Part shown: positions 2 to 28,616 of the stretch, piece after piece
How the letters are laid out: every line of letters starts with the position of its first letter
How positions within the stretch are numbered: the stretch's first letter is position 1
Origin: Candidatus Woesearchaeota archaeon
Lineage (GTDB): Archaea > Nanobdellota > Nanobdellia > Woesearchaeales > J072
Reading direction: 5' to 3'
Assembly: GCA_003695265.1 (NCBI GenBank)
Contig: RFII01000037.1
Coordinates: 1 to 33,707 of the forward strand
Length of the DNA: 33,707 bases
Translations under genes and position numbers: made by a program
Notes under the pieces: generated by a model
What the model was told of the DNA's origin: nothing
Database searches by the model: none
Seen by the model: only the letters and a program-made list of their open reading frames with translations

Positions 2-973
2 ACAGCACAAATCATCTACCTAAACCAAAACACAACCAACAACAAAACACCCCTAGAAATAACATACTCACAACCACAAAGCAAACAAGCAATATTCGTT
101 GCGCGGAAATCTGTAAGCTTTGAAGATGTTTGTGTGGAGACATGTGCTGTTAATTTCACTGACACAAATTATGAGGTGAGGTTTGAGGTTAGTAATGCCA
201 CTTTGCATATCATCAACATAAGCTACACAACAACACAGAATATTAGGGTTCCTGAAAACGTGACCTTAATAATCCAAGGCAACGAGACCATCTTCATAAA
301 CAACACTTTGCTAAACGCTTCCATAAGCGCGGGCTTAAAATCAATGCTGAATTACAGTGACATTGATGCCGGAAGCTTATGGGTCCTCTCAAAAATAAAT
401 GAGATTCAGCCTTCAAACGAGATAACCAGCAGAATAAATTATTATATGTATGATGAGTCGGATGAAGAGGCGCCGATTTTTAAGTTTATTAGGAAACAAG
501 AAATAACGAGTAGTGATGTTCCAGATAAGTTGTGGAGCATCCAATACACGTCCGACTTCCTAAAGGTGTGGATGTGCAGGTCTGAGCCGATTGATGAGAA
601 ATTCTTAGCAGGGCTTGAGCAGAGAACAGTAGAAAAGTTTGAGGAGTACAAGGACTTGCATGTCCTGCTCGCTTATGTTTGGGCAAAGGAGCTCGGATGC
701 TACGAACCAGAAGTGCTTGACCCGCTTATCAGTAAGAAAGTATCCGAGATACTGAGCAAGAGCACTGACGGCTTGTCGATTGACGTGGTTGCTGAGCGAG
801 CAGCTGTTGTTCAGTACGCAGGCTACCGGATACCACCAAGCCTTGTTGAATACCTGCTGGTAACGCAGAACATTGATGGCGGCTGGTCATCTGATATTGA
901 GAGCAGCTCAAATCCGCACACAACCAGCCTTGCTATTTGGGCTTTAGTACAATGGAGAGAGAATAATGAATAA
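2..973 (+). CDS. 5'-truncated surface/secreted protein with a C-terminal alpha-helical prenyltransferase/squalene-oxidase-repeat-like region
   Basis: The frame is open from base 2 (TAQIIYLNQNTT...FEDVCVETC), so the 134 start is internal. Many N-x-S/T sequons. The C-terminus has a QW-like motif LLVTQNIDGGW...HTTSLAIWAL. Overlaps the next gene by 8 nt. Confidence 0.65.
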   Translation, partial: TAQIIYLNQNTTNNKTPLEITYSQPQSKQAIFVARKSVSFEDVCVETCAVNFTDTNYEVRFEVSNATLHIINISYTTTQNIRVPENVTLIIQGNETIFINNTLLNASISAGLKSMLNYSDIDAGSLWVLSKINEIQPSNEITSRINYYMYDESDEEAPIFKFIRKQEITSSDVPDKLWSIQYTSDFLKVWMCRSEPIDEKFLAGLEQRTVEKFEEYKDLHVLLAYVWAKELGCYEPEVLDPLISKKVSEILSKSTDGLSIDVVAERAAVVQYAGYRIPPSLVEYLLVTQNIDGGWSSDIESSSNPHTTSLAIWALVQWRENNE

Positions 974-7721: not shown

Positions 7722-8944
7722 GCAGAACAACATTAAACAGGAATTGCATGCTTGTCTTGGCAGCTTTTGTTATGCTGTTTGCTCTGGCAGGCCAAAGCCT
7801 CGCCCTTGGCGTTGCGCCAACGCAGAAAGTCATTGACTTTGAGCCCGGCCAGACAAAAGAAGTTAAAATCCAGATAATCAATGACCAGCAAAAAGACTTC
7901 AAAGCCATAGTTTATGCCAGGGGTGAGATGGCAAATTATACTAATATTAGGGACAGCTTAGTAACAGTAAAGGCAAATGAGAAAATGAAGGAATTCAGGT
8001 TTAATGTGAGTATGCCAAGCAGCATAGACAAGCCCGGAGACCACGAAGTAGAGATAGTTGTTTTGGAATTTGGCGATGACGTGGAAGAAAAGGCTATTGT
8101 GACGGCAAGGGTCGCGGTTGTGTCAAAGCTTATTGTTCGCGTGCCCTACCCTGGAAAGTACGCAGACGCAAAGCTTTTCATAAACTCTGCAAATGTGAAC
8201 GAAACTGTCACTTTCAAGGTGCCTATTTATAATTTTGGCGATGAGGCAATTGAAGAGGCTTGGGCTGAGATACAAATATTGGGAGCAACGTATGAAGTGA
8301 TAGGTAAAGTTGAGACAAACAGAATAAGGCTAGAGCCAAAATCAGAGAACAGCGTCAAGGCTGGCTGGCTTGCGGATGTGAACGCTGGGGTTTATCATGC
8401 AGTTGCCATAGTTCATTATGATGACAAAACAGTGAGGGTTGAGGAAAACTTTGAGGTTGGGAACCTTCTTGTTGAGGTTGAGAACGTGATAGTTGATGAG
8501 TTCAGATTAGGGGAGATTGCGAAGTTTGATATAATTGTGAAGAACACGTGGAATGAGCTGTTAAAAGATGTTTATGGCGATGTTAAGGTTGTTGATGAGA
8601 AGGGAAGCATTTACACGAATTACAAAACAGCTTCTATTGACATTCCCGCTTATTCGAAAGGTGTGCTTGAGGCTTACTGGGATACAAAGGAAGCGCAGAT
8701 AGGCAAGTATGACCTTGACATAACACTGCATTACAAGGGAAAGACAAGCAGGAAAGTGATTGAAACCCATGTGAATATTGACTCAATAACAACGAAGAGG
8801 ATGCCGACAGCCGAAGTTGTTGGAGCAAAGAGTGGTGCAGGGCCAGAATTCATAAAGCAGAATTCAGTGCTAATAATTTCAGTGATAATCCTTATTATTA
8901 TCAATATTGGCTGGTTCATTTATTTTAAGAAAAGCAAGAAATGA
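7718..8944 (+). CDS. Membrane-anchored multi-Ig-fold surface protein (PapD/DUF916-like N-terminus); paralogue of 9935..11110
   Basis: Signal peptide, then LGVAP..VIDFEPGQTKEV; three beta-rich domains; C-terminal TM helix with a Lys tail. ATGA overlap with the giant gene. Confidence 0.7.
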   Translation: MSRTTLNRNCMLVLAAFVMLFALAGQSLALGVAPTQKVIDFEPGQTKEVKIQIINDQQKDFKAIVYARGEMANYTNIRDSLVTVKANEKMKEFRFNVSMPSSIDKPGDHEVEIVVLEFGDDVEEKAIVTARVAVVSKLIVRVPYPGKYADAKLFINSANVNETVTFKVPIYNFGDEAIEEAWAEIQILGATYEVIGKVETNRIRLEPKSENSVKAGWLADVNAGVYHAVAIVHYDDKTVRVEENFEVGNLLVEVENVIVDEFRLGEIAKFDIIVKNTWNELLKDVYGDVKVVDEKGSIYTNYKTASIDIPAYSKGVLEAYWDTKEAQIGKYDLDITLHYKGKTSRKVIETHVNIDSITTKRMPTAEVVGAKSGAGPEFIKQNSVLIISVIILIIINIGWFIYFKKSKK

Positions 8945-9049
8945 GGTTGCATATAAGGTTGTATAATAAGGTTTTTATTTTTATATAGAAGATATATAGA
9001 AAAATTTATATATTAAGCATAACAAAATTTTTAATTAAGCAGTAAAAAA

Positions 9050-9274
9050 ATGGTGAGTGAAATAAAAGACAGGGAGAAAAAGATATTTATTACTTTAATA
9101 ATTCTTACAATAATAGTTTCTGTCCTAGGAACAGTGATGCTTCTCGAAGTTTCAATGCAGCCTAAACCTAAGACAAACCAGCAGGTCGGCTATGTCACAA
9201 TAGAAATACTGCCTAATCCGAACAAAGCTCCAGACCAGAGAGTGGTTGAGAAAGAAAACCATCAGCCTGGATAA
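9050..9274 (+). CDS. Small membrane protein: one TM helix plus a single beta-strand (VGYVTIEI)
   Basis: TATA-like TTTATATA at ~9005. The N-terminus resembles that of 9290..9910 (IFITLIILTIIVSVLGT vs MIITLLIVTIIVSLGGT). Confidence 0.7.
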   Translation: MVSEIKDREKKIFITLIILTIIVSVLGTVMLLEVSMQPKPKTNQQVGYVTIEILPNPNKAPDQRVVEKENHQPG

Positions 9275-9289
9275 AATGAGGTGTCATGA

Positions 9290-9910
9290 ATGAGAGAGTT
9301 TTCAAACAAGATGATTATTACCCTACTTATTGTCACAATAATTGTTTCTTTGGGCGGCACTCTTATCAGTATAAGTCGCTTGAGCCAGCTAGAGCTTATA
9401 ACTGGAAAGGTTACTGTTGGAAACGTAAGCGTTAATATTACAGAACAAGCAACTCTGAATCTTACCACACCAAACATTGATTTTGGCAATGGATATGTAA
9501 CAGGAGGGTCTAACTGCACTATTAACAGCCAAGATGGAACTGGCTCAAGCACGTGCTGGAGCAACACAGGTGTAGGTGCTAATAGTGGTATAGTAGTTGA
9601 GAACATAGGAAATGTTGGAATCAATGTTAGTGTAACATTTGCTAAGAACGGAACAGATTTTATAGGTGGAACAAACCCTGAGCTAAAATACAAATGCAGG
9701 ACTGATGGAAGCAGCAGTGGAACATCAAGGGCAAGCTCATTCACATTAGTTGACAATACATCCTTGACTTATGAGTGCTGGGCAAACCTCGCTCCAATGA
9801 GCAGTTCTGACTCTTTTTATTTTGATATTAGTTTAAACATACCAGACAATGCTCAGGGGTTAAAGAATAATACTATAACATTCACCGCTGCCAAGAATAT
9901 GACGGGTTAA
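9290..9910 (+). CDS. Secreted single-domain beta protein, candidate major fibre subunit
   Basis: Strong SD (GAGGTG); N-terminal TM, ITGKVTVGNVSVNI strand, IDFG, VVENIGNV, C-terminal DISLNIP...GLKNNTITFTA; four Cys. Confidence 0.75.
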   Translation: MREFSNKMIITLLIVTIIVSLGGTLISISRLSQLELITGKVTVGNVSVNITEQATLNLTTPNIDFGNGYVTGGSNCTINSQDGTGSSTCWSNTGVGANSGIVVENIGNVGINVSVTFAKNGTDFIGGTNPELKYKCRTDGSSSGTSRASSFTLVDNTSLTYECWANLAPMSSSDSFYFDISLNIPDNAQGLKNNTITFTAAKNMTG

Positions 9911-9934
9911 ACCCGTTAAATTCTGGGTGTTTGA

Positions 9935-11110
9935 ATGAAAAAGATTGTTTGTTTTATTGTATTTCTCATATTTGCTCAAACAGCTTTTGCAATAGGCATC
10001 GGTGGCTCAGAGCTTAATCCGAGTGTTGTTTTTGAGCCGAACCTGAATCTTAAGTATTCTTATCAAATCATAACAACTTTATCAGAGCCAAGCGATTATG
10101 AGGTTTATGTCAAGATGGGTAAAAATGATAATATTGACCTGACAAAATATGTTACTATAGAACCCACAACCCATTTTTCTAATGTTAAACCTGGAGATAA
10201 CCCTTATTTTACTGTTAAGGTAAATCTTCCCGAATCAATTGAGGAGCCAGGTTACCATTCCATTATTGTTGGCGTTGTGGAAGCGGAGACACAAGGAGGA
10301 GCACTTAATTCTAGGACAGCGGCAGAAACATACATAACAATACTGTCACTTTTCCCTGGCAAGCTTCTTAAGTCACAAGTTTCTGTTCGCAACACCAATG
10401 CTGATGAGGAAACAGAGGTAAAGGTTAATGTCCAAAACTTAGGAGAGGAAACAATCAATTCTGTAAAGGCAAAAATCCAGGTTTTTGACTCAGATAATAA
10501 TGTTGTGAGAGAATTAACAACGAAGTCAATATCATTGGGCCCTGGAAAGAAAGATGTCATAAAAGAGCCGCTTAGCGTTCAGGGCTTACAGCCTGGTGAG
10601 TACAGCGTAAAGGCTTTTATAACTTATGACGGGAGAGAGGATTCTGCAGAGAACACATTTAAGATAGGTGAGCTTTCTGTCAATATTGTTGATTATTCTA
10701 AGGTATTTTATTCAAACCAGATAAACGAGTTTAACATTCAGGTTGAAAGTGTTTGGAACCATCATATCAAGGATGTTTACGCAGAGGTTATTGTTGAGAA
10801 TAAAAGGGTAAAGACACCAACAACGAGCATTGATCCGTGGCAGAAAAAGATAATAACAGGGTACTTTGACACAAGAGGCATAAAGCCGGGCACTTACGCT
10901 GGACAAATTATAGTCCATTTTAATGGAAAGACAAGCTTAAAGGATATTCAAGTGCAGATAGTGCATCCAAGAGAGGTTGAAAGCCCAAGAGAATCTGCCT
11001 TAAAGAACATAAGCCTCACAGTGATTATGATTGCAGTTGTTGGAATACTCGCAATAATTGATTTGGTGTTTATTCTTGCAAGGAAGAAACAGGACAATAA
11101 GAAAAAATGA
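9935..11110 (+). CDS. Membrane-anchored multi-Ig-fold surface protein; paralogue of 7718..8944
   Basis: Shared motifs VFEP, P.SI..PG.H, V.N.G.E.I, F.IG.L.V, F.I.V...WN...KDVY; C-terminal TM helix and basic tail. Confidence 0.7.
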   Translation: MKKIVCFIVFLIFAQTAFAIGIGGSELNPSVVFEPNLNLKYSYQIITTLSEPSDYEVYVKMGKNDNIDLTKYVTIEPTTHFSNVKPGDNPYFTVKVNLPESIEEPGYHSIIVGVVEAETQGGALNSRTAAETYITILSLFPGKLLKSQVSVRNTNADEETEVKVNVQNLGEETINSVKAKIQVFDSDNNVVRELTTKSISLGPGKKDVIKEPLSVQGLQPGEYSVKAFITYDGREDSAENTFKIGELSVNIVDYSKVFYSNQINEFNIQVESVWNHHIKDVYAEVIVENKRVKTPTTSIDPWQKKIITGYFDTRGIKPGTYAGQIIVHFNGKTSLKDIQVQIVHPREVESPRESALKNISLTVIMIAVVGILAIIDLVFILARKKQDNKKK

Positions 11111-11517
11111 GAAGGCTTGTTCTGATTTTTATAGTGGGTGTGCTTTCTATAATATTAACTCTTTTTCTTTACAGCTTTTACAGTGTTGCTTTTGTGAAGT
11201 ATGTTCCGATGAGTGTTGAAGTTGGCAGGGGGGTTGGGTTCAGCCTTGACACAGACATCCTGGACTTTGGGAAAACATTTCCAGGAGGCGTTCTGTCAAG
11301 GGAGATAATTGTAAGCCACAACGTGGATGAAAGGCTGAAAGCACGTATAATTCCCACAGGGGAGATTAAAGACTGGGTTTATTTGTCAGATAATAATTTT
11401 CATTTAGCAAAGAATGAGGTAAGAAAACTGGCTGTTTTTGTTTATGTTCCTAAGAACACATCCTTTGGGAATCATACAGGCACGCTTAGAGTGTTTTTCC
11501 AGAGAACAATAACATGA
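11107..11517 (+). CDS. Small TM-anchored beta protein, candidate minor fibre subunit
   Basis: N-terminal TM, YVPMSVEV strand, LDFG motif, C-terminal VYVP.....G..TGTLRVF. ATGA overlap with the upstream gene. Confidence 0.7.
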   Translation: MRRLVLIFIVGVLSIILTLFLYSFYSVAFVKYVPMSVEVGRGVGFSLDTDILDFGKTFPGGVLSREIIVSHNVDERLKARIIPTGEIKDWVYLSDNNFHLAKNEVRKLAVFVYVPKNTSFGNHTGTLRVFFQRTIT

Positions 11518-11597
11518 TATATCTAAAACATATCATTATGATATATAGTTAATAGTTATTTAGTTCTATTTGGAAATATTTATATATCATTTTGATA
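11514..11597. promoter_or_regulatory. Putative operator array and promoter of the RHH gene
   Basis: Inverted repeat ATATCAT-T-ATGATAT (11530-11544), another ATGATAT at 11514, and TATCA-TTT-TGATA at 11585-11597 next to TTTATATA (~11579). Confidence 0.5.
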
Positions 11598-11609
11598 CTA
11601 ATAGGATAT

Positions 11610-11795
11610 ATGGATGAGCTTATTCACGTACGCGTTGGCAGAGAGTTAAAGAGGCAGATGCAAAAACTGATTGATTTGGGTCTTTTTTCCAATCAGGCAG
11701 AGATTGCACGCGAGGGCATAAGAAATCTTCTCTTAAAATATAACAAGGAAATAGTGGAAGCCTTAAAAAACAAAAATGGAAAGAATATCAAATAA
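11610..11795 (+). CDS. Ribbon-helix-helix (CopG/Arc/MetJ-like) transcription regulator
   Basis: LIHVRV strand, helix, then GLFSNQAEIAREGIRNLL, matching the archaeal RHH pattern G.f.s.SE.iR.aiR.ll. ATG at 11610 preferred. Confidence 0.8.
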   Translation: MDELIHVRVGRELKRQMQKLIDLGLFSNQAEIAREGIRNLLLKYNKEIVEALKNKNGKNIK

Positions 11796-13488
11796 CCGCA
11801 TAGCTTTGATAGCAATAATAATAATGTTTATATCACTTTTAACTAATTGGATGATCATTTACACGACAAAACAGCAGATTCCTGTAGGAGCTGTCACTAA
11901 AGGAAAAGTAAGCATATGCATAAATGAGCCTCCGGAGCTAAGTGTTCCCTGCAACAATAAAGGGTATGTTGGTTGCAGGTATTATTGTGATGCTGATGCA
12001 ACAGACCAGTTCAGCACAGAGTTTTATTTTAATGATGACACTGATTTATTTGACATAAATGAGACAACAGGAATTATTGACTTCACTCCTGTTGAGAATG
12101 AGAGTGGGAATTATTCAATCAACATCAGTGTTAGCGAGCCTGCCAACTGCTCTAATAATGAGAGCTCACAAATATTAAACCTTTCAATTTCAGCCAATGT
12201 TTGCGGAGACGGAATTTGCGTAGCGCAATGCGGGGAAAACAGAAGAACGTGCTCTGCTGACTGCGGCAGCAGCTCAAACCAAGCAGCCGGAAGTGGAGGA
12301 GGCGGTGGGGGCGGTGGAGGAGCAATTCCCTCTCCTGACCAGTTGGACGCGCTTCCGTCATTTGACTTTGACCCAGAGCTTTTGAAAGTGTTCTTAAACA
12401 TTGGGGAAGTCCAGGAAAGGCAGGTTGTTATTTCGAACACAGGCACAAAAGACATTAACATAAATATTGAGTTAGAGCAGCTGCAAAAATATGTTTCCTT
12501 ATCAGAGAATGAGTTCTTCCTGCCAGTGGCAGCATCAAAAACAATCAGCATAAAATTCGATGCAAAAAACACCCAGCCAGGAGTATACACGGGAAATTTG
12601 GTTTTCACATCAGGCATTGTGAAGAAAAAGCTTCCCATAATTATTGAGATAGAGTCAGTTGGGATTAAGCTTGATTTAAGAGTTTCAATTCCAGAAGAAT
12701 TCCAGATGATTGAAAAAGGAGAAGATATTGCAGCAAAGATTGCGCTCTTCAACATGGGTGACAAAAAAGAGATTACTGTCAGCCTGAAATACGGCGTAAA
12801 AGACATGAATGATATGGTAATAGTGTCAGAGCAGGAAGACGTGCAGCTCACAACCTCGCTTGAATTGCTGAAAAGGCTTGATTTGCCGTATGACATCAAC
12901 AAAGGAAACTACGTTTATTTTGCAGAGGCCATTTACAAAGACAAGAAATCAGTAAATGGTAAAATATTTGAAGTGGTTGAGGAAACAATAAGGGAAGAAG
13001 TCCCATCACCTGTAAGAGAGGACCTTAACTCAGATAAGCTGCTATCAGACATTGAGCAAAGGTTCAGCAAGCAGATGCTATTGTTCTTATTAATTTTAAT
13101 ATTGATAATAATAAACGTGTCGTACTTCACGTACAGGAAGCTAACAAGCATTGAAAAAGAGCACGCAAAGCACGCAGGAGAAAAAGAGAAGGAAAAAATA
13201 AAAGATGAAAGGAAAGAGGCAAAAAAGGACAAAATAATAAGAATATTATCAAAAGCATCAGAAACAAAAGGCAAAAGGAAAGAAAGACAGGCAATAAGCA
13301 AGATAAAAATAAAAAGGAAAGTGAAAGAAAAAGAAGAAGCATTATTAGAAAAGAAGAAGCTTGAGAGAAAAGCCGAGACACTGAAGAAAAGCTTCAAATT
13401 AAGGTATATAAGCAAACAGTCGTACGAGAAAGGAATAAAAGAAATAAACGAGGAGATAAGAAAGCTGAACAGGAAATTAAGGCAGTAA
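11776..13488 (+). CDS. Membrane-anchored surface protein: N-terminal TM and strand, cadherin/Ig-like domain, Cys motif, poly-Gly linker, Ig-like domains, TM, Lys/Glu-rich cytoplasmic tail
   Basis: GAVTKGKVSICI after the TM; LFDINETTGIIDFTP; CGDGIC...GE...TCSADC; Gly run; second TM; charged coiled-coil tail. Confidence 0.75.
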   Translation: MERISNNRIALIAIIIMFISLLTNWMIIYTTKQQIPVGAVTKGKVSICINEPPELSVPCNNKGYVGCRYYCDADATDQFSTEFYFNDDTDLFDINETTGIIDFTPVENESGNYSINISVSEPANCSNNESSQILNLSISANVCGDGICVAQCGENRRTCSADCGSSSNQAAGSGGGGGGGGGAIPSPDQLDALPSFDFDPELLKVFLNIGEVQERQVVISNTGTKDININIELEQLQKYVSLSENEFFLPVAASKTISIKFDAKNTQPGVYTGNLVFTSGIVKKKLPIIIEIESVGIKLDLRVSIPEEFQMIEKGEDIAAKIALFNMGDKKEITVSLKYGVKDMNDMVIVSEQEDVQLTTSLELLKRLDLPYDINKGNYVYFAEAIYKDKKSVNGKIFEVVEETIREEVPSPVREDLNSDKLLSDIEQRFSKQMLLFLLILILIIINVSYFTYRKLTSIEKEHAKHAGEKEKEKIKDERKEAKKDKIIRILSKASETKGKRKERQAISKIKIKRKVKEKEEALLEKKKLERKAETLKKSFKLRYISKQSYEKGIKEINEEIRKLNRKLRQ

Positions 13489-18270: not shown

Positions 18271-19386
18271 ATGGCAAAAGAAGCAACGTCAAAAAAAGAT
18301 GCTCAAAGCAGGATAAAGGAGCTTGAGGAAGAGCTCAGGAAAACGCCTTATAATAAGAGAACCCAGCATCACATAGGTCTTATAAAAGCGCAGATAGCAA
18401 AGCTTAGGGAGAAGCAGGAAAGGCAAGGAAAAGGTAAGGGAAAGCATGAAGGTTACTCAATAAGGAAAACAGGGGATGGCACAGTAGTTTTAGTCGGCTT
18501 TCCATCATCAGGAAAATCAACTTTATTAAACAAAATTACTAAAACAGAGTCTCGCACCGGCAATTACGATTTTACAACGTTGAATGTTGTGCCAGGACTT
18601 TTGGAGTATAGGCATGCGAAGATTCAGGTTTTAGACGTTCCAGGGATTGTTAGAGGTGCTGCCTCTGGCAAGGGAAGAGGAAAAGAGGTGATTTCTGTAA
18701 TCAGGAACGCTGACCTCATTGTTGTGCTTATAGATGCAACCCAGCCAAAGCAGCTTAAATTCCTGAAAAAAGAACTTTTTGACGCTGGGATTCGAATGAA
18801 TGAGAAGAAGCCTGATGTGAAAATTACGAGAACTTCTAAAAATGGAATTGTTATTGGCACAACAAAAAAGCTCACACGTCTAAGCAAGGAAACAATAAAA
18901 GGGATTATGAAAGAATTTAAGATAATAAACGCTGATGTTGTTATAAGGGATAACATAACTGACGACCAGCTGATTGACTGTATTGAGGGGAACAGAGCAT
19001 ACATTAAAGGGGTCATAGTTGTAAACAAGATTGATTTGCTGGACAAGGAGAGATTGGATGAGGTAAAAAAGATGTTAAAGCCAGACCTAGTGATATCTGC
19101 TGAGCACGAAATTGGTGTTGAAGAGCTGAAAGAACTAATTTTTGAGAGGCTGGATTTGATAAGGATATACCTCAAGCAGCCTGGCAAGCCAGCTGACCTA
19201 AAGGAACCTCTAATAATGTTCAAGTCATGCACTGTGGAAGATGTTTGCAACAAGCTGCACAAGGATTTTGTGAGAAAATTCAGGTTCTGCAGGGTGTGGG
19301 GGAAAAGCTCAAAGTTTGACGGGCAAAGGTTCAATTTGAAGCATATCTTGGCAGATGAGGACATTTTAGAAATTCATTTGAGTTGA
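18271..19386 (+). CDS. DRG/Rbg (OBG-family) GTP-binding protein with TGS domain
   Basis: GFPSSGKST, YDFTTL, DVPG, NKID; N-terminal YNKRTQHHIG; C-terminal VWGKS..H.L.DED. Confidence 0.95.
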   Translation: MAKEATSKKDAQSRIKELEEELRKTPYNKRTQHHIGLIKAQIAKLREKQERQGKGKGKHEGYSIRKTGDGTVVLVGFPSSGKSTLLNKITKTESRTGNYDFTTLNVVPGLLEYRHAKIQVLDVPGIVRGAASGKGRGKEVISVIRNADLIVVLIDATQPKQLKFLKKELFDAGIRMNEKKPDVKITRTSKNGIVIGTTKKLTRLSKETIKGIMKEFKIINADVVIRDNITDDQLIDCIEGNRAYIKGVIVVNKIDLLDKERLDEVKKMLKPDLVISAEHEIGVEELKELIFERLDLIRIYLKQPGKPADLKEPLIMFKSCTVEDVCNKLHKDFVRKFRFCRVWGKSSKFDGQRFNLKHILADEDILEIHLS

Positions 19387-19442: not shown

Positions 19443-19838
19443 ATGATAACAGCCTCAAGGGATTCTGGGAGGCCGACTCTTTTGCTTGTGGATGATGATG
19501 ACAGCATTAGAAATGATTATATGCTTCAAATTGGTGAGAAGTTTCAGATTATACCTTTTGCTGATTACGCGTCTACAATGAGTTATTTGTCGGGCCACAA
19601 ACCAGATGTTGTTCTTTCAGACATAGATCTCACTGGAGATGGCAGTGGAAGGCAAGGTGTTAATATTTGTGATTTTGCGCGAAAAAATTATGGAATACCA
19701 GCATTTTTGATGTCATCAGATTATAGCATGAGAAGCATTGCTGAAAGGAATGGTCTTAAATTTCACCTTAAAGGTGTTGAATCAGTCGCTGATTTGGTGG
19801 AAAGAATAAGTAATGCGATTGGATACCACAGCAATTAA
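19443..19838 (+). CDS. Stand-alone response-regulator receiver (CheY-like) protein
   Basis: LLLVDDD, PDVVLSD (phospho-Asp), IPAFLMSS, FHLK. Confidence 0.85.
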   Translation: MITASRDSGRPTLLLVDDDDSIRNDYMLQIGEKFQIIPFADYASTMSYLSGHKPDVVLSDIDLTGDGSGRQGVNICDFARKNYGIPAFLMSSDYSMRSIAERNGLKFHLKGVESVADLVERISNAIGYHSN

Positions 19839-20166: not shown

Positions 20167-20556
20167 ATGGAATACTCATTTCATTTTTCTGGGCATAAAA
20201 ACATTTCTGCAACGCACAAAACAACATTTGAGCTCACAAAAGAACCAACCCTAACAGAAAAGGGTGACTGCATTATTGGCGTAAAAGCGGATTTTAAATT
20301 GTCAGAGTTAAAGAGATTCTTAAGAAAAGAAAAAGTTCTGATAATTATTATGTCAGGGGAGTTCTCTGAGGAAGTTGTGGCTGTGCCTAATAAAAGTTTT
20401 AGCTCAGAAAAAGAGCTTGTCGTCAGGACTTCTGGCTTCATCTCAAAGAGGACTTTTGCTGTTATGGCGGACAAGGCGTGCTCTGATTTCTCAAGGGAGA
20501 TTATCAAAAGCATAAAGGAAAACGGCGGAAAAGTTATTGTTAGAGAAAGCTCATAA
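20167..20556 (+). CDS. DUF371 family protein
   Basis: GH.NI.ATH.TTFE.TK...LT..GDCIIGV.AD and V.R.S.FI..RT....ADKA. Confidence 0.9.
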   Translation: MEYSFHFSGHKNISATHKTTFELTKEPTLTEKGDCIIGVKADFKLSELKRFLRKEKVLIIIMSGEFSEEVVAVPNKSFSSEKELVVRTSGFISKRTFAVMADKACSDFSREIIKSIKENGGKVIVRESS

Positions 20557-21612: not shown

Positions 21613-22164
21613 TTAAACTGTTATAGTGGCATCGCAAAATTGGCTTACCTCTGATATCAGCCCAGGATCAGTGTCTTTTCTTAAGCAGATGATTATCCCA
21701 TCAACTTGATAATTTCTCATCTTGCCAGCTAAAAAATGCATGAACCTTGCCACTGTTTCCTGCGAAGAGTAAACAAGCAGCGTGTTTAAAGAGTCAAAAA
21801 AAACAAATTTTTCATCCTGGGATATTGCTCTGACAGCCTCTGTCATTGCTATTGATATGTCGCTTAAGTCGCGTGGACTTCTTAAGTAAAAGCAGTTTTC
21901 AGCATCAGGAATGTGTGACTGGTGCATATGAGACACAGCATCAATAAATATTATCATGTTTGTGTCAACGCCATTCCTTTTAAACGTGTCAGCAAGTGTT
22001 GAGAAAGGCTTGTTTATTGTTATATAAACGCCTGGAAAGTGCTTTATATTTGTAAAATATTTTACCAAGTTGACATTTGTTTCCTGATAATTGTCAATGT
22101 CAACGAGGAAAAGCGCTATGAACTTATCAAGCTTTTTAATGCTGTCCAAATACCTCTTTTTCAT
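21613..22164 (-). CDS. Inactivated KaiC/RecA-like ATPase domain protein (DUF835-like)
   Basis: GVYIT.NKP, IIFIDAVS, SP.DLS.I, FFDSLNTLL.Y; no Walker A motif. ATG 22164 preferred, with TATA at ~22190. Confidence 0.75.
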   Translation of the reverse strand: MKKRYLDSIKKLDKFIALFLVDIDNYQETNVNLVKYFTNIKHFPGVYITINKPFSTLADTFKRNGVDTNMIIFIDAVSHMHQSHIPDAENCFYLRSPRDLSDISIAMTEAVRAISQDEKFVFFDSLNTLLVYSSQETVARFMHFLAGKMRNYQVDGIIICLRKDTDPGLISEVSQFCDATITV

Positions 22165-22249
22165 GAGATAGACTAACACAGAATGCTTTATAAAAGTTTC
22201 TTTTTTTGAAAGCAAAATTATTTATAGCAAAAGCTTGATTTGTATTGAT

Positions 22250-22471
22250 ATGGAAAAGAAGAGATTTTTTATAGGATTAGTGCTTGGCTGGATGCTGGTT
22301 TTATTTTTGTCAGTGTTGAGTGTTTTTTATGGAAATAATGTTTCAGGAGCTGTTGTGAAGCAGATAAAGCCGCTCTCGCAGAGTGTAAGCATTGTTCTTG
22401 TTACTACGCTCCTTGTTGTTGTATTGCTTAATGGAATACTTATAAGGAGTTATTTTAAAAAACAAGCTTGA
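22250..22471 (+). CDS. Small two-TM protein with a VSGAVV linker
   Basis: Two hydrophobic helices with basic termini. Confidence 0.6.
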   Translation: MEKKRFFIGLVLGWMLVLFLSVLSVFYGNNVSGAVVKQIKPLSQSVSIVLVTTLLVVVLLNGILIRSYFKKQA

Positions 22472-22544
22472 TTATTATTCTTAACTTTTTAGTAACAACA
22501 ATCAAAAAGATTTATATATAACAAATGAATTTGTTAGGGTAAAA

Positions 22545-23807
22545 ATGAAAGGACAAAGTCAGGAGATTCCTAGGTATGAAGTAAAAAGCCAAGATGAAAG
22601 AAAATACAAGAAAATTGAGAGGCTATTAACATATAATGGAAAAGTTTCTAGAGACACGCCACTGTCAAGAGACCTTTCAAGGCTGGTTAGCCTGAAAGGA
22701 AAAACACCTCTTGCAAAGCAGCTTGGCAATGGTGTGAGTAGGCTTGAGGATTCTCTTGTAAGAAGAATGCTCAGAGGAGAGCACTTATTTGAGGAAGGAA
22801 GCGCTGAATGGCTTTTAGCTAAAGCTGCCTTATCAATAGCTGCTGAGGAACAGCAAGGAAAAAGAGACCTCGGAACGCCCGAGCTGATACACCCATTTCT
22901 TATCGCAAGAGCAGCAGTCGCGTATGATCTTGGATTAGTTGGGTTGGTTTCTGGCCTAACACATGACATTGGAGAGGAGGTTATCAAGGCAGAGCACTCA
23001 GACATAAACCCAGAGCAAATAATGAATGGTGTCAACAAAAGAATTCTGGAAGAAATGGAAAAAAATTTGGATAGATATATTCCTAGGAAGAAATGGGCTG
23101 AGATTTCTAAAGTGTTAGATGATGCAGCAACGATTTCGGCAAGACTAACAAGAAGATTAAGTGAGCCTTATCACAGTTACATAGTTGGAGCGCTACATAA
23201 TTATTATGAAGGAAACACGTTTAATCCGCGATTGGCTTATGTAGCTGCAGTCTTAAAATATTTTGATAGGTTATTTAACACCCTAGATGTTGATTCTGTC
23301 GGTGAAGAAAGCCTGCTTGACCCTAAAAAAAGGTTCAAGCTTATTGCAAAAAATATTTTACTGGAAAACGAGACGAGAGTGCTTAGGAATAGGAGGGATT
23401 TCAAAATAGAGGACCGGCTAAATAAGAATTTAGCTTTTTTAGGGCATACAATCTTATATTTTACTGAGTTAGAGGCTGCAAAGTGGATGGGGCATATAAG
23501 AAAGTATTTGCCAAGAAGTTATAATGCTGCAGAAACAGACGAGTGGATTCAGGAATTTGAGCGCAGGGGTGGCTTTGATAAAAGGACAAGGAAGAGGCCT
23601 GCAAAACTTGTTGCTAAGTACCCTTGGCTCAGATTTCATGGAAAGATGAATTATGTGAGGGGTCATTTCAGAGGAGAGCATGACTTGGAATTATTGGAAG
23701 ATAGCATTGAATTGTATGAGTCAGTTTATGCTATGCGAAGAGCAGCCCAATTAATGTATGTTGAGCCACATAGGATTATTGATAACCTAACAGGAGACAG
23801 TGGCTGA
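22545..23807 (+). CDS. RelA/SpoT-type HD hydrolase (SAH/Mesh1-like) with N- and C-terminal extensions
   Basis: QGKRDLGTPELIHP, LTHDIGEE, LTRR and KYFDRLFNT occur in the order of the RSH hydrolase motifs R..G.PY..HP, LHD..ED, LT, K.aDR.hN. Confidence 0.75.
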   Translation: MKGQSQEIPRYEVKSQDERKYKKIERLLTYNGKVSRDTPLSRDLSRLVSLKGKTPLAKQLGNGVSRLEDSLVRRMLRGEHLFEEGSAEWLLAKAALSIAAEEQQGKRDLGTPELIHPFLIARAAVAYDLGLVGLVSGLTHDIGEEVIKAEHSDINPEQIMNGVNKRILEEMEKNLDRYIPRKKWAEISKVLDDAATISARLTRRLSEPYHSYIVGALHNYYEGNTFNPRLAYVAAVLKYFDRLFNTLDVDSVGEESLLDPKKRFKLIAKNILLENETRVLRNRRDFKIEDRLNKNLAFLGHTILYFTELEAAKWMGHIRKYLPRSYNAAETDEWIQEFERRGGFDKRTRKRPAKLVAKYPWLRFHGKMNYVRGHFRGEHDLELLEDSIELYESVYAMRRAAQLMYVEPHRIIDNLTGDSG

Positions 23808-23851
23808 AACCCCACAATATTATTGCATAATTGCTAAAAAATAATAATAAA

Positions 23852-26380
23852 ATGGCAAGTGCTTTTTCAACACAGGAAGTAAGGGAATTCCTTGAACTTA
23901 CAGACATAATATTGGGGTGTTATGAAGACGGCAGGCCAGTGTCTCCTGAGCTCTTAGAGAAGACTCTTACTAGAGCGCGCCTAAAGGAGCTGCAGAGGTA
24001 TCTGGAAAACGAAGCATACCATAGTATGAACAATTTAAGAAGCGTATGTGGCAATATAAAAACAAGGTACATGAAGAGAAAAAGGGCGCAGAAAAGCACT
24101 TACCAAAATGTCTTTGACGGCGGAACATATGAGGTTTGGGATTTTGATCATGTTTCCCATGGAATAATATCATCTATGATTTTTGGATTAAAGTCAAGGG
24201 GCGGCTTCTGGCAGAAGTATCCAAAACACATAAAAGAGGGTAGAAGAAGAAGTGATTTTGCAAGGGCCACTGTAATTGTGAAGCATCCTGATGCTCCACA
24301 TCTGCCACGCGGAGTTCCTGATGTGGAGATAACAGCATTAACAAGAGAAGAGAGGGAAGCCTACAGGAAAAACAATGGTGCTGCTTGGGAGGAATACGAA
24401 AAAAAATGGGGGGAAAAGAATAAGAGGACAGCAGAAGAGCTTGTTATGGTTATTGAGAAAGGCATTTTTCCTTTTAAGGTTATAAACAGAAAAGACTTGC
24501 CCGTATTGTATAATGGAAGAAGGGTTTTGATGCGCGGACAAAGGTTCTCAATGTTTGGAGGAGGGCCGAGGGATTTTATTGACGCTGATTACTTAAGGTT
24601 TCCAACAGTGGAAGAAGCAAAGGAGTTTGTTGATGATTTACGGAACAAGAATATTACTGAGACCTTGGAGAATATTGTTGGGGCAAGAGAAGCTTTCTCG
24701 TATGAGAAAAATGATGAAATGTATTATGTTGCGAGAGACAGGAGTTCTGTTGCAGTTATGATCACGCCGATTAAGCATAGCAAAAGACAAGGCAAGGTTG
24801 CAACACTGCTTTCGAAAGTAATGACAAAATACACGTGCACGACCCATAGATGGGAAAGTGTAAGGGGTGCGGAAGAATACATGGACTATATCAGGAAGAC
24901 AGTAGATGCTAGGCCAGTAAAAAAAACAAAATTTTCGCATGACGTTCTGCTTTTTAAGAGAGGAAACAATTATCATATACTAGCGAGAAGGAATAATGAA
25001 ATTGTGGAGTTTGTTGGTAGTGGGAGAGAGAGCATCTTTTTTGATGCTGCAAAAAGGGTTGTTGACGATGCTCTCAACCCAAAAAACAAGGTTAAGAAAG
25101 AATACTGCGGAGCTTTTAAAGGTCTTGTTAAGTTTGATTTAAGCTCAATGCCTGGGCTAATATTAGAGGAAGGCTGTGTTTTAGAGGACAGGCTGTCACG
25201 ATATGATAACCTCGAAATTGACACTAGCTCAGGGGAGTTCATGTCTGACAATTATTTTAGGGAGCCGAAAGGCGAGAGAAAGTATGCGGGCAGTATTAAC
25301 ATGACAATAATTTTTAATGGTCAAGAGATCGAGCTTAAAATAATGACTCCAGAGCTTTATTACAAGTCTTTCTGCGGAAACCCAAAATGGGTTCCAAGAG
25401 AGTCTGGAGGTTACAAAGCAGGAGAGGAAACATTCAAGGATTTTATAGACGTCCTTGAAGTGTTTAGAAGAAGCCCTGAGCAGTCGCTTCGTGACATCAG
25501 GGATGATATTGAGATAAACTTGTATTTGAGAGAGATGAGAGAATTCCGTGAATTATTAGAATATGTGACTAGTTTTGATGAAGCATTAGATGTGTTTAAC
25601 GAAGCAAGAAGGATATATTTAAGAGCATGCACTGATCATCCTCCCCAAAAGACAGAGAGGTTAGGCAGATTGCTCTCATCATTTTTGAACCCTTATTTTT
25701 CAGAGAGAGGCCTTGCCATAATTGACGTTGCAGACCAGCTGCAATCACTGGAAGGGGAAATAATGGGGAAACCTATAAGCGTTGTTGTTAATGAATCATT
25801 GCATTTGTCAAGGTTAAATGAGATATTAAGAATCTTGGATGAAAAAACCCCTTTGATAAGCCAAACTGGAATTTCACATAATCATCGCCTGCAGGCTTAT
25901 GCTTTGCTGGAAATGGCAAGGCATTACGAAGAATTTTATGGAATATCGTTTCCTACAAGCTACAAAGAGGAAACAATGATGCCGAAAATCAACGGGTTTT
26001 TAGAGCATTTTGTTAAGGTAGAGCCGTCTAAATTATTAAGGAATCTGATAACGCCTGAAAGCCTTGAAAGACTGATGTTTGGGAGTGAAGAGCATCAGAT
26101 GGGATTAAATGAGGAAGGCAGGGCTTTCTTTAATAGTGGGGGGTATCATAGAATAACAGAGGTTCCTAAAGGATTAACCTTAACTTCCCGTCTTGGTAAG
26201 TACAAGAAAAGCGTTATAGAAGATGATTTTAATAATGTATTTCGCCCTCTTGGATTTTCAGATGATGAGATTTCGTTTATGGTTAGTCGCGCCTGCGACT
26301 TAGTAAAAACATTGAAGATTAGGAGGTTTAACGAGCTTTATAATGGCATTCCATTACACAGAACAACATATATTACTTGA
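23852..26380 (+). CDS. Large protein with a divergent, interrupted RelA/SpoT-like synthetase (nucleotidyltransferase) domain
   Basis: GLKSRGGFWQK and SDFARATVIV, then about 300 aa later DNYFREPKGERKYAGSIN and GQEIELKIMT...G......YK. Confidence 0.6.
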   Translation: MASAFSTQEVREFLELTDIILGCYEDGRPVSPELLEKTLTRARLKELQRYLENEAYHSMNNLRSVCGNIKTRYMKRKRAQKSTYQNVFDGGTYEVWDFDHVSHGIISSMIFGLKSRGGFWQKYPKHIKEGRRRSDFARATVIVKHPDAPHLPRGVPDVEITALTREEREAYRKNNGAAWEEYEKKWGEKNKRTAEELVMVIEKGIFPFKVINRKDLPVLYNGRRVLMRGQRFSMFGGGPRDFIDADYLRFPTVEEAKEFVDDLRNKNITETLENIVGAREAFSYEKNDEMYYVARDRSSVAVMITPIKHSKRQGKVATLLSKVMTKYTCTTHRWESVRGAEEYMDYIRKTVDARPVKKTKFSHDVLLFKRGNNYHILARRNNEIVEFVGSGRESIFFDAAKRVVDDALNPKNKVKKEYCGAFKGLVKFDLSSMPGLILEEGCVLEDRLSRYDNLEIDTSSGEFMSDNYFREPKGERKYAGSINMTIIFNGQEIELKIMTPELYYKSFCGNPKWVPRESGGYKAGEETFKDFIDVLEVFRRSPEQSLRDIRDDIEINLYLREMREFRELLEYVTSFDEALDVFNEARRIYLRACTDHPPQKTERLGRLLSSFLNPYFSERGLAIIDVADQLQSLEGEIMGKPISVVVNESLHLSRLNEILRILDEKTPLISQTGISHNHRLQAYALLEMARHYEEFYGISFPTSYKEETMMPKINGFLEHFVKVEPSKLLRNLITPESLERLMFGSEEHQMGLNEEGRAFFNSGGYHRITEVPKGLTLTSRLGKYKKSVIEDDFNNVFRPLGFSDDEISFMVSRACDLVKTLKIRRFNELYNGIPLHRTTYIT

Positions 26381-26819
26381 TAATCCTGGTTTTCGGCACA
26401 AAATTGGTTAGATTGTTATTCCTGATTTTTCCGCACCCTAGAAAATCGTTTCCTGACTTAACAATTTGAAATGATTGAGTATCTTGCTCTAAAGGTATGC
26501 TGTATCCTTTCATCCATAATATTTTTTGCTTTTCATCAAGCTCAACAACATTCTTTGTTGCTTCTTTGCCAAAGATTTGAGAGCCTTCAATGCTTAGCCT
26601 AATCTCATTATTTGTCAATTCGCCGAGATAAAGTCCGAGAGCATCAACTCTTAGTTTTTCCATATCAAATTTAAGAACTTCTTTGTTCACAACATACAAC
26701 CTGTTTTTCCTGTTAATCAAAAAAGCCATGTTTGTTTCTTTCTTGATTCCCCACTGCTTGTTGAGAATTTCAAGAATTCTTCTCACTTCTTTTTTATTCA
26801 GTATTTTAAGCTTCATCAT
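26373..26819 (-). CDS. NIP7/RsmF-C-terminal-like PUA-related RNA-binding protein
   Basis: GLYLGE....IRLSIEG.Q......KNVVEL......W.KG...LGCGK...L.NFVPK; coupled to the aIF5B stop codon. Confidence 0.75.
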   Translation of the reverse strand: MMKLKILNKKEVRRILEILNKQWGIKKETNMAFLINRKNRLYVVNKEVLKFDMEKLRVDALGLYLGELTNNEIRLSIEGSQIFGKEATKNVVELDEKQKILWMKGYSIPLEQDTQSFQIVKSGNDFLGCGKIRNNNLTNFVPKTRIIK

Positions 26820-28567
26820 ATACCCCACAATGGGTTGTCCTTGCGCATTATAGCAGCTATTTCTTTTAGCACTTCGATTTCTCCCTCTGAGAAGCAGTGC
26901 TTAAGGCTTTTCTGCTGCCTGAACTCTTCTTCGGATATTGCAGAGTAAAGAATGTCTCCCTCATGAATCTGCCTTCCGACTGTTGCGCCCTCGAGAGCTA
27001 CTGCGACCTGCTTGTTTTTCCCTGCTTCTGCAATGCTTTCTTTTTCCTGCTGAATATTTTTTACTTTTGCAATTGTTTTGCCGTTTTTCATTAGGTCAAT
27101 CCCTGTTTTTAATGTTCCCTCAATGATGTCGACTCCCACAATAGCTGGGTTGCTCTGCCTGAAAACATAACCTTTCATTACCTCAATTTTGCACGGCTTT
27201 GTAAACGCGCAAAGCATCTTTTCCTGCTCTGCCTTTTGTGTTTCCTCACGCCACTTCTCAAAATCCTCAATTAATTTGTAAATTACATTATTAGTTAAAA
27301 TCTTGACTTTTGATGATTTGGCGTCTGATTCTGCTGTGACATTAAATCCTAGTATTACAGCATTTAACGGGTCTGTTCCCAAGTTGCTCTCAGCCTCGAC
27401 AATGTCTTTTTTTGTTATTTTTCCTATTTCTGCCTTTCTTATAGGAACTAGTTTCTCGGCAAGAAGCTTTGAAAGCGCCTCTAACGAGCCGAGAGTGTCA
27501 GCCTTTATTATCACACCTTCTTTCTCAGTTTTTATTAGTACTTCCTCAACCTCTTTTTGGACTTCCTCTTTTGCCTTTTCAACATCAAGCGCAACCATCA
27601 AAGGCATTCCCGCCACTGCATTCTCAAGGCCGGGAGCAGATATTTTTACTCCTGTCGCAGCTATAACTTCTTTGACGTGGTTGAACTTGCTTTTTTTGTC
27701 CCGCATCTCTGCTAATGGTGCTGGCTCAAGCAATGCCCTCACTTTAGTAACAATCGGCTCATCCACTGAACCTATCACAACCGTGTCATTAACTTTTAGA
27801 ACGCCGTCAAATATTATGACATCAATTGTTGAGCCAAGCCCTTTCTCCTCCTTAACTTCGATTATTGTGCCTTTTGCAGGGCCTTCAACGCTGCAGTCAA
27901 GGCATTGATTTAAAAATTTCTGGGCGAGCCCTGCTATCATCATGAGTAGTTCTGGAATTCCTTCTTTTGTTACTGCAGAGCACGGCACAATAGCAACCTG
28001 TTTTGTGTAATCATCAACCCTGTCAAACCTTTCTGACTGAAAACCCAATTCATGTATTCTGCCAACCAGCTCGTATAATTTTTTTTCGATTTCTGTTCTT
28101 ACTTTTTCATCCTGCTCTTGAATTGCAGTGAGGATTGGCTTTTCTGATTTTTTCCATCCGGGTATTAAGTCAATCTTGTTTGCAGCTATGATAAATGGTG
28201 TTTTGTACTGTTTAAGTATTTCAATTGATTCTAGAGTCTGTGGCTTAAAACCCTCGTTGATGTCAACCACAAGAATCGCGATATCTGCTATGTTTCCGCC
28301 GCGTTTCCTTAAGCTGGTAAAGGCTGCGTGTCCTGGAGTGTCAATAAAGAGAAGCCCTGGAATTGTGAAGTCCATTTTCAATTGGCACAACAATTCCTTG
28401 CATATTCTCTTGATAGTCTCAATAGGAATAATGCTTGCACCTATAGCCTGAGTTATCCGTCCTGCTTCTTTCTCGATAATGGCAGTTCCCCTAATGCTGT
28501 CCAGGATAGAACTCTTTCCGTGGTCTACATGACCAACTACTACGCAGATGGGTGATCTGACTGCCAT
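26816..28567 (-). CDS. infB: Translation initiation factor aIF5B (IF-2)
   Basis: RSPI..GHVDHGK, ITQAIGA, DTPGH, NKID, KADTLGSLEAL, FRQSNPAIVGV; no intein. Confidence 0.98.
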   Translation of the reverse strand: MAVRSPICVVVGHVDHGKSSILDSIRGTAIIEKEAGRITQAIGASIIPIETIKRICKELLCQLKMDFTIPGLLFIDTPGHAAFTSLRKRGGNIADIAILVVDINEGFKPQTLESIEILKQYKTPFIIAANKIDLIPGWKKSEKPILTAIQEQDEKVRTEIEKKLYELVGRIHELGFQSERFDRVDDYTKQVAIVPCSAVTKEGIPELLMMIAGLAQKFLNQCLDCSVEGPAKGTIIEVKEEKGLGSTIDVIIFDGVLKVNDTVVIGSVDEPIVTKVRALLEPAPLAEMRDKKSKFNHVKEVIAATGVKISAPGLENAVAGMPLMVALDVEKAKEEVQKEVEEVLIKTEKEGVIIKADTLGSLEALSKLLAEKLVPIRKAEIGKITKKDIVEAESNLGTDPLNAVILGFNVTAESDAKSSKVKILTNNVIYKLIEDFEKWREETQKAEQEKMLCAFTKPCKIEVMKGYVFRQSNPAIVGVDIIEGTLKTGIDLMKNGKTIAKVKNIQQEKESIAEAGKNKQVAVALEGATVGRQIHEGDILYSAISEEEFRQQKSLKHCFSEGEIEVLKEIAAIMRKDNPLWGI

Positions 28568-28616
28568 TTTCAATCATATTAGCAAGGAACAGCGTGTTGT
28601 TTTTATATTTTTTCTT

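Follow-up and report, generated by a model that had tools for sequence, protein, structure and literature searches.

A split RelA/SpoT-homologue hydrolase and synthetase gene pair, hidden from annotation, at a translation-gene locus of Woesearchaeales archaea

Introduction

The closest described relatives of the system reported here are enzymes of the RelA/SpoT-homologue (RSH) superfamily. RelA/SpoT is reported for 41.7% of Woesearchaeota in PMC8407392. For the synthetase FaRel2, PMC11782079 lists the residues that contact the donor adenine (R64, G93, R95, E145 and Q147), the phosphates (K66, S70, K74 and R77), Mg (D90) and the acceptor base (Y128), and D90 and Y128 are given as essential. Here we describe two adjacent genes, P0001 and P0002, in a 33,707-nt stretch of DNA (the window; positions 1 to 33,707 of contig RFII01000037.1, assembly GCA_003695265.1) from Candidatus Woesearchaeota archaeon, whose genome (G000; 1.06 Mb in 103 contigs) is 94.6% complete. 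The genes are co-oriented, with 44 nt from the P0001 stop to the P0002 ATG; the open reading frames (ORFs) confirm this arrangement, which the original prediction, made from the sequence alone, had described:

22545..23807, plus strand: P0001, RSH-type HD hydrolase, ORF of 420 amino acids (aa)
23852..26380, plus strand: P0002, predicted RSH synthetase-fold protein that carries a large insert and ends in a helical region, 842 aa from the ATG

An alternative in-frame TTG start of P0002 at 23831 would give 849 aa.

We conclude that this annotation-invisible pair is real and, by predicted folds and core residues, belongs to the RSH superfamily. As to its function, the reading we favour, at a little under an even chance, is a native housekeeping synthetase/hydrolase pair that acts as a reversible 3′-pyrophosphorylation switch with an acceptor that is probably not GTP or GDP. 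We place it ahead of ordinary ppGpp metabolism, a toxin-antitoxin or defence system, and a pseudo-enzyme, in that order.

Results

Predicted folds of the two proteins

Searches with the Pfam, NCBIfam and PADLOC models gave no HD or RelA_SpoT match for either protein, and PDB sequences gave none to an RSH protein. A word-indexed homologue search returned one relative of P0001 (P0003, 53%) and none of P0002.

The AlphaFold2 (AF2) model of P0001, built from a 21-row alignment (pLDDT 86.8, pTM 0.90), was matched by VIA-align to SpoT 7qpr with Z 14.2 and a root-mean-square deviation (rmsd) of 3.3 over 188 aligned residues, and to four bacterial small alarmone hydrolases (SAHs) and Mesh1 with Z 12.9-13.3. 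The top 10 Foldseek matches are all SpoT or Rel, but with E values of just 0.016-0.14. The protein also carries family-specific N- and C-terminal helical extensions. Its motifs HPF (position 116), HDIGEE (140) and KYFDRLFN (238) give, together with R107, the key residues H116, H140, D141, E144, K238, D241 and N245, which we take to fill the roles of the H..HD..D metal ligands, the catalytic Glu and the conserved Arg, Lys and Asn. All 21 aligned hydrolase rows share H116, H140, D141, E144, K238 and D241; R107 is kept in at least 90% of them and N245 is present. The rows comprise the non-Rel HD proteins that were retrieved and exclude four long Rels and two small SAH-like proteins; as an HD-based profile was used to find them, the invariance in part reflects this selection. 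The original prediction had read RSH hydrolase motifs with ED changed to EE. The motifs stand, but EE is the family norm and no deviation: the residue pair after the HDIG-type motif is EE in 14 of the 21 hydrolases, ED in 5, EQ in 1 and EN in 1, and the first, catalytic Glu is kept. P0001 itself has no HD or HD_4 match above the Pfam cut-off; its locus relatives P0004 (27.7) and P0010 (27.9) pass the HD_4 cut-off of 27.2. By its predicted fold and core residues, P0001 belongs to the RSH HD hydrolases, and by analogy with RSH chemistry it is most likely an active pyrophosphohydrolase. A second RSH-type hydrolase is encoded in the same genome without a synthetase (C52:4582-5475, minus strand, 298 aa); it is similar to the N-terminal portion of long Rel (E 3e-12) and keeps the HD and the first Glu.

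In P0002 the synthetase motifs lie in two blocks, GLKS (112) and SDFARAT (134) in the first and NYFREPK (467), SINM (481) and ELKIMT (494) in the second; every motif quoted in the original prediction was found in its place. The span from Syn2 to Syn4 is 360 aa, vs. 60 aa in two canonical Rels. A whole-protein alignment misplaced the Syn1-2 half, and the two synthetase halves were therefore aligned separately. In the AF2 model (26 rows; pLDDT 77.0, pTM 0.61) both blocks assemble into a RelP-like SYN fold, with model residues 40-520 matching RelP 6ewz in VIA-align (Z 11.2, rmsd 3.3, 155 aligned), and the best six of 48,161 chains are all RSH synthetases (RelP, RelQ, Rel and RelA). Foldseek with the whole model gave no RSH among the rows listed, with weak TBP and longin rows, and the ESM Atlas pointed to RelA_SpoT as a lead only (0.85, 154/256 features). 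Because the predicted folds match RSH structures and locus relatives pass HD_4 or PF04607, the motifs are not a product of chance. The models thus bear out both the proposal of a separate RSH hydrolase next to a split-motif RSH synthetase and the joining of the motif blocks in one synthetase fold. The parts of P0002 are:

24173..24289, plus strand: predicted synthetase site, first half, residues 108-146 (G112, K114, K122, K125, D135, R138, T140)
24575..25081, plus strand: two tandem alpha/beta repeats in the insert, about residues 242-327 and 328-410
25244..25360, plus strand: predicted synthetase site, second half, residues 465-503 (Y478, N483, E494, K496, M498)
25487..26377, plus strand: C-terminal helical region, residues 546-842, from the secondary structure of the model

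Conservation in the synthetase active site

Residue roles in P0002 were carried over from FaRel2 by motif spacing and alignment. On this mapping P0002 would keep K114, K122, K125, the Mg-binding D135, E494 and the acceptor-stacking Y478. Compared with FaRel2, R64 is changed to G112, S70 to G118, G93 to R138, R95 (the Syn2 Arg) to T140 and Q147 to K496; N483 stands for the Syn3 His and M498 for the Syn4 Arg, the Syn5 His is absent and the basic residues preceding DY are lost. The RxK, DxxxxR, YxSxH, ExQxRT and final His motifs are not intact. The original prediction had already noted that the metal-binding Asp and Glu are kept while RxK, DxxxxR, YxSLH and ExQxRT are altered, and D135 and E494 on one side and G112, T140, N483, K496 and M498 on the other agree with this.

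With 7 of 13 scored canonical positions changed (Asp+3 not counted), P0002 might be a pseudo-enzyme here, a nucleotide- or RNA-binding sensor or scaffold, with the hydrolase acting on host-derived alarmones or NADPH-like compounds. Loci with the hydrolase only (G035, G009, G005 and G046 in the anchor survey described below, G136 and G203 outside it) would suit this, and a binding-only site could likewise retain metal ligands, lysines and an exchange of arginines such as that described next. Against it stand the near-invariance of the metal ligands and phosphate-binding lysines and the repeated origin of that exchange. Among the insert-type synthetases the Syn1 Lys is kept in 25/25, the second Lys in 23/25, the Syn2 Asp/Glu in 25/25, the Syn4 Glu/Asp in 25/25 and the acceptor Tyr/Phe/Trp in 23/25; the Syn3 His (6/25), Syn4 Arg (11/25) and Syn5 His (11/25) are less kept. 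The altered Syn3-4 block of P0002 shares 22 of 39 residues with that of its closest relative P0024, including the same substitutions, where the whole proteins are 24% identical, and it holds the best 36-aa window of the whole comparison.

An Arg at Asp+3 is found in 17 of 20 rows that lack the Syn1 Arg vs. 0 of 30 that have it (50 of 56 rows; six badly aligned rows were dropped), and inspection by eye suggests that G010 and G141, two of the three exceptions, are misaligned. On the tree, the gain of the Asp+3 Arg takes five Fitch steps and the two traits jointly take seven; since kin rows are not independent, these repeated gains weigh more than the significance value. We infer that the new R138, on the next strand, compensates for the lost Syn1 Arg (G112). 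Hence the active site of P0002 is probably remodelled, not decayed, and the predicted enzyme probably still works. The pattern of conservation and the compensating swap speak against a dead synthetase, which the original prediction had allowed for, and we hold the pseudo-enzyme to be the least likely of the four explanations.

Acceptor site and product

The Syn3 His, the Syn4 Gln and Arg and the Syn5 His are present in 12 of 12 long Rels and replaced in P0002; the residues before DY are usually basic in these long Rels. Because residues typical of (p)ppGpp makers are changed around the acceptor, the acceptor of P0002 is probably not GTP or GDP. A non-GTP acceptor is what we favour from the residues present, and the earlier suggestion of a perhaps non-ppGpp product gains support as a possibility. 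In PMC11782079, a smaller positive patch at the acceptor site is linked to tRNA use.

Alternatively, the two genes could simply make and degrade (p)ppGpp or pGpp, replacing a long Rel that is seemingly absent here: PF04607 has no match in G000, and tblastn of this 94.6% complete genome revealed no long Rel. The best structure matches of P0002 are RelP, RelQ and Rel, and many canonical motifs are retained in the insert-type synthetases P0035, P0034, P0029 and that of G012. P0001 retains R107, which would be equivalent to the Arg position tied to guanine preference in Aph1 D24R. The replaced acceptor-site residues, invariant or usually basic in the 12 long Rels, speak against ppGpp turnover, and we consider it unlikely, if the most serious competitor of the non-GTP switch.

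Insert and C-terminal region of P0002

The insert sits directly ahead of the acceptor loop. Its repeats A and B align to each other with an hhalign probability of 96% (E 4.8e-9, 62 columns), indicative of a tandem duplication. In VIA-align the insert matches TiME (Z 7.4), the PknH sensor (7.4), DcrB (7.3) and Dip2269 (7.2), with several family members at Z 5-7.4, all below the caution line of Z 8. The matches are mutually consistent, and the fold is tentatively regarded as Mog1p/PsbP/DcrB-like, the name that we presume to cover them. A TBP-like insert was dropped from consideration, as TBP falls outside the 50 best VIA rows, which does not exclude it. The ESM Atlas gave no usable feature match for the insert. 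The C-terminal region is not TGS or ACT and has just generic helical-bundle structure matches; in alignments it is far shorter or missing in the relatives P0005, P0021 and P0023. A complex prediction of P0002 6-628 with P0001 37-412 scored 0.00, which is evidence in neither direction.

Promoter, composition and neighbouring genes

An archaeal-type promoter precedes the hydrolase gene:

22503..22518, plus strand: B recognition element (BRE) and TATA box, TTTATATA at 22511-22518

The TATA box begins 34 nt ahead of the hydrolase ATG. Genome-wide, BRE/TATA-type motifs gave 74 hits (453 genes) at 30-39 nt before the ATG vs. 3-16 in each other 10-nt bin, and the P0001 transcript is probably short-leader or leaderless. 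A sigma-70 promoter scan was rejected as inapplicable, the host being an archaeon. Directly upstream of the promoter, a small hydrophobic ORF of about 73 aa was read by eye (window ~22250-22470, plus strand). The GC content of the pair (0.40) is the same as the genome value, and among 661 long ORFs the two genes rank at the 35th and 39th percentile for codon adaptation index. By GC, codon use and TATA-type promoter, the pair is native to its genome.

The neighbours that recur with the pair, and a GTPase gene further upstream, are:

26373..26828, minus strand: NIP7-like pre-PUA/PUA gene (Pfam PF17833 and PF13636)
26816..28573, minus strand: aIF5B, IF-2-type translation initiation GTPase (Pfam), recurrent neighbour
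20167..20556, plus strand: DUF371 gene (Pfam PF04027)
18271..19386, plus strand: DRG/OBG-type GTPase with TGS domain (Pfam MMR_HSR1 and TGS)

The NIP7-like gene, the most constant neighbour, is convergent with P0002 and overlaps its 3′ end by 8 nt. In relatives, a DUF371 gene lies upstream of the pair in the same orientation, and a UPF0113-like PUA gene frequently separates the two; in the window it is parted from the pair by small minus-strand genes. The DRG/OBG-type GTPase, presumably DRG, shares a conserved neighbourhood with MscS and prefoldin. Other window genes identified by Pfam are Trm1, prefoldin and TrmB, which together with aIF5B mark the gene content as archaeal.

Also upstream of the pair, a response-regulator receiver stands alone at 19443-19838 and a KaiC-like DUF7504 gene occupies 21613-22215; at the G022 locus, DUF371 adjoins five receiver genes and a histidine-kinase-like gene. 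At 966-13488 (plus strand) the window holds a surface-protein cluster, a possible host-attachment apparatus: a 2251-aa protein that combines two laminin-G-like domains with beta-helix repeats comes first, and several proteins of Ig-like or CARDB type come after it.

Distribution of the pair

A first search of 60 other genomes gave one relative of P0002. Iterated profile searches of 401 genomes of the order (the tally includes the unpublished G273) yielded ten more HD-then-synthetase pairs, in G022, G062, G228, G186, G379, G248, G096, G145, G234 and G361. Each of them adjoins a DUF371 and/or NIP7-like gene, and aIF5B is often near; the linkage of the two genes elsewhere, on which the original prediction depended, is thereby found in ten further genomes. 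As a less biased count, we surveyed one genome per family with the NIP7-like gene, present in 55 of 61 genomes, as anchor. In 24 of the 55, such genes lie beside it: 11 genomes have an RSH hydrolase and a synthetase-like gene there, 9 the synthetase-like gene alone and 4 the hydrolase alone. This count includes weak-score or motif-read calls for the synthetase in G060, G047, G008, G031, G057, G039 and G034 and for the hydrolase in G046 and G047; the reversed-sequence control reached E 0.0095, and several negative loci stop at contig edges. G001 and G008 have the anchor between the two genes, which are not adjacent there. The pair thus sits at a fixed translation-gene locus across many families. 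Among 1.84 billion representatives, a profile search picked up 23 proteins (sequences without genomic context, five being query rows or their fragments) and zero canonical RSH; pattern scans of viral and metagenome contigs gave no relatives.

Several loci deserve separate mention. Beside the NIP7-like gene, G012 (L095:3267-5180) has an insert-type synthetase whose Syn3-5 motifs are near-canonical and whose gene runs off the end of the contig, and G047 (L126:1087-2714) has a synthetase-like sequence seemingly in two ORFs (353 and 196 aa) next to a short HD gene, decaying or mis-assembled. In G083 (L083:3455-8422) a 1656-aa protein with a signal-peptide-like N-terminus and PF04607, convergent with an HD gene, is a possible exported alarmone synthetase. 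Same-family hydrolases stand alone, off the NIP7 locus, in L057, L059, L064, L061 and L062 (G333, G297, G184, G142 and G271), and four of these five genomes also have a long Rel (PF04607). The L017 stretch encodes the synthetase family, which all other finds place in archaeal genomes, though it is labelled as a bacterial candidate phylum; possibly a mislabelled bin, it was not counted.

The original prediction had proposed a defence or toxin/antidote role. Such a pair of toxic small alarmone synthetase and SAH (toxSAS-SAH) would work through an insert that senses a viral or host protein and frees a toxic pyrophosphokinase, with the HD enzyme detoxifying like ATfaRel. The hydrolase-first bicistron of P0001-P0002 and the ten further genomes fits this, as do the extreme divergence of relatives (~20-25% identity), their variable accessory domains and the patchy presence (24/55). 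Synthetase-only loci are no counter-argument: three of the five such genomes tested (G010, G056 and G031) have an RSH-type hydrolase elsewhere, and the argument that they speak against toxicity was dropped. Set against this are the single housekeeping locus held across many families and the native codon use; these translation genes do not form a mobile or defence-island context of the toxSAS type. Hydrolase-only loci exist (4/55), and in the Pfam scan none of the 31 window proteins is of a defence or mobility type. P0001 and P0002 have no PADLOC match, whereas separate small alarmone synthetase (SAS) genes in G006, G026 and G261 match PDC-S33 (E <1e-110). With the housekeeping locus, the native GC, codons and promoter and the missing PADLOC match, the defence proposal found no positive evidence, and we judge it less probable again than ppGpp turnover, though above the pseudo-enzyme. 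The PDC-S33 genes, off the NIP7 locus at L074:5630-6727, L075:5742-6806 and L089:5529-6569 (G026, G006 and G261), are candidate antiviral toxSAS in their own right; we presume them to be CapRel-like.

Long Rel in the same order

PF04607 is present in 183 of the 401 genomes (including the unpublished G244 and G182), mostly in frames of ~640-680 aa; the two long frames scanned (P0014, P0015) are HD-SYN-TGS-ACT proteins. Together with the published share of Woesearchaeota given above, this overturns, for this order, the premise of the original prediction that RSH enzymes are rare in archaea. Weaker PF04607 matches comprise 27 listed in 20 genomes, of which 20 were retrieved: 9 of these lie beside the NIP7-like gene, mostly with near-canonical motifs, and several others are CapRel-like and located away from it. 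Long Rel occurs in 4 of 20 synthetase-bearing genomes vs. 17 of 35 others (P 0.046), a weak tendency. In the tree, long Rel forms its own clade (UFBoot 98), separate from a clade with the insert-type synthetases (97). The tree has 109 columns, no bacterial reference rows and a weak backbone, so that the origin of the pair, from long Rel or from a SAS/SAH pair, is not readable from it.

Discussion

We favour, tentatively, the housekeeping 3′-pyrophosphorylation switch, a pair vertically inherited but fast-evolving. P0002 would bind Mg-ATP in a rebuilt donor pocket formed by D135, E494, K114, K122, K125 and R138, the last replacing the Syn1 Arg, and would move pyrophosphate onto a 3′-OH stacked on Y478. 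The acceptor in this lineage may be an RNA 3′ end or another nucleotide instead of ordinary GTP/GDP, and the duplicated insert ahead of the acceptor loop may gate or aim the enzyme. P0001, as a metal-dependent HD enzyme, would take the pyrophosphate off. Its likely role would be to control translation or the assembly of ribosomes under stress or in dormancy. A bolder proposal, which we regard as doubtful, is a ligand-gated housekeeping RSH switch that reversibly pyrophosphorylates an RNA 3′ end (tRNA or rRNA in ribosome assembly) or makes an undescribed nucleotide, with the duplicated PsbP/DcrB-like domain as a sensor coupling a host or stress signal.

Several findings weigh against the switch as we picture it. 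P0002 loses both Arg that sandwich the donor adenine in FaRel2 (G112, T140) and has a single replacement; the second Arg is also gone in most of its subclade, and its Syn1 Ser is likewise lost. The Syn5 region is weakly modelled (pLDDT <50 at 514-530), and the structure matches of the insert stay under the caution line. Many same-locus synthetases keep near-canonical ppGpp motifs. tRNA-using toxSAS have no clear sequence signature according to Kurata et al., so that the acceptor is unreadable from sequence. The NIP7-like gene, being convergent, is not co-transcribed with the pair here. With hidden Markov model (HMM)-supported calls only, long Rel is found in 3 of 13 vs. 18 of 42 genomes (P 0.33), and the anti-correlation vanishes.

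Were the bolder proposal right, archaeal growth control would here be built from stringent-response parts with different chemistry. If active, the pair would allow alarmone-type or RNA-end control to be tested in DPANN archaea. An RSH pair hidden from annotation recurs at one translation-gene locus across a small-genome archaeal order, and P0002 is among its most rebuilt members, yet with signs of selection in the active site. The Syn1-to-Asp+3 Arg swap may serve as a usable rule for spotting and judging other hidden synthetases. Our literature searches turned up no paper on this split pair; some near-canonical members may be listed in supplements to PMC8407392 and to the toxSAS surveys.

Comparison with known RSH systems

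P0002 shares its predicted fold with RelP and RelQ (6ewz, 6fgk, 5dec) and the Rel SYN domain (8acu, 6yxa), at Z 9.9-11.2 over 140-160 aligned residues, and has in common with them the Mg-binding Asp, the Syn4 Glu, the ATP-binding lysines and the acceptor Tyr. Unlike them, it has ~300 additional residues, a tandem repeat among them, separating Syn2 from Syn4, ends in a helical region of 300 aa, and shows replacement of both donor-site Arg and of the Ser, His, Gln, Syn4 Arg and Syn5 His; structural identity is 12-14%, and P0002 is without a PF04607 match. P0001 has the HD fold of SAH and SpoT enzymes (7qpr, 7p1y, 7qoe, 7qoc, Mesh1 5vxa, 6z3n, Aph1 7smg; Z 11-14.2) with their metal ligands and catalytic Asp/Glu, but is 420 aa long, with terminal helical extensions and EE for ED, and falls below the HD_4 threshold.

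The toxSAS-SAH module ATfaRel-FaRel-AT2faRel has, like the pair, the hydrolase gene before the synthetase gene, and the tRNA pyrophosphokinases FaRel2 and CapRel (7ztb, Z 8.6) may resemble P0002 in non-ppGpp chemistry. Unlike these systems, the pair occupies a fixed chromosomal housekeeping locus, toxicity is without positive evidence, and P0002 lacks R64, R95 and Q147, all kept by FaRel2. The long Rel of Woesearchaeota/DPANN (P0014 and P0015; PMC8407392) has the same two catalytic domains, and both systems occur in G022, G228 and G361. Long Rel is, however, a single polypeptide with TGS, ACT and invariant motifs, whereas the pair is two genes parted by a stop and the 44-nt gap, with no TGS/ACT match. 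By fold and core residues the pair is RSH, and by motif it is neither a (p)ppGpp synthetase proper nor a long Rel; by analogy, we take it to work like an SAS plus an SAH.

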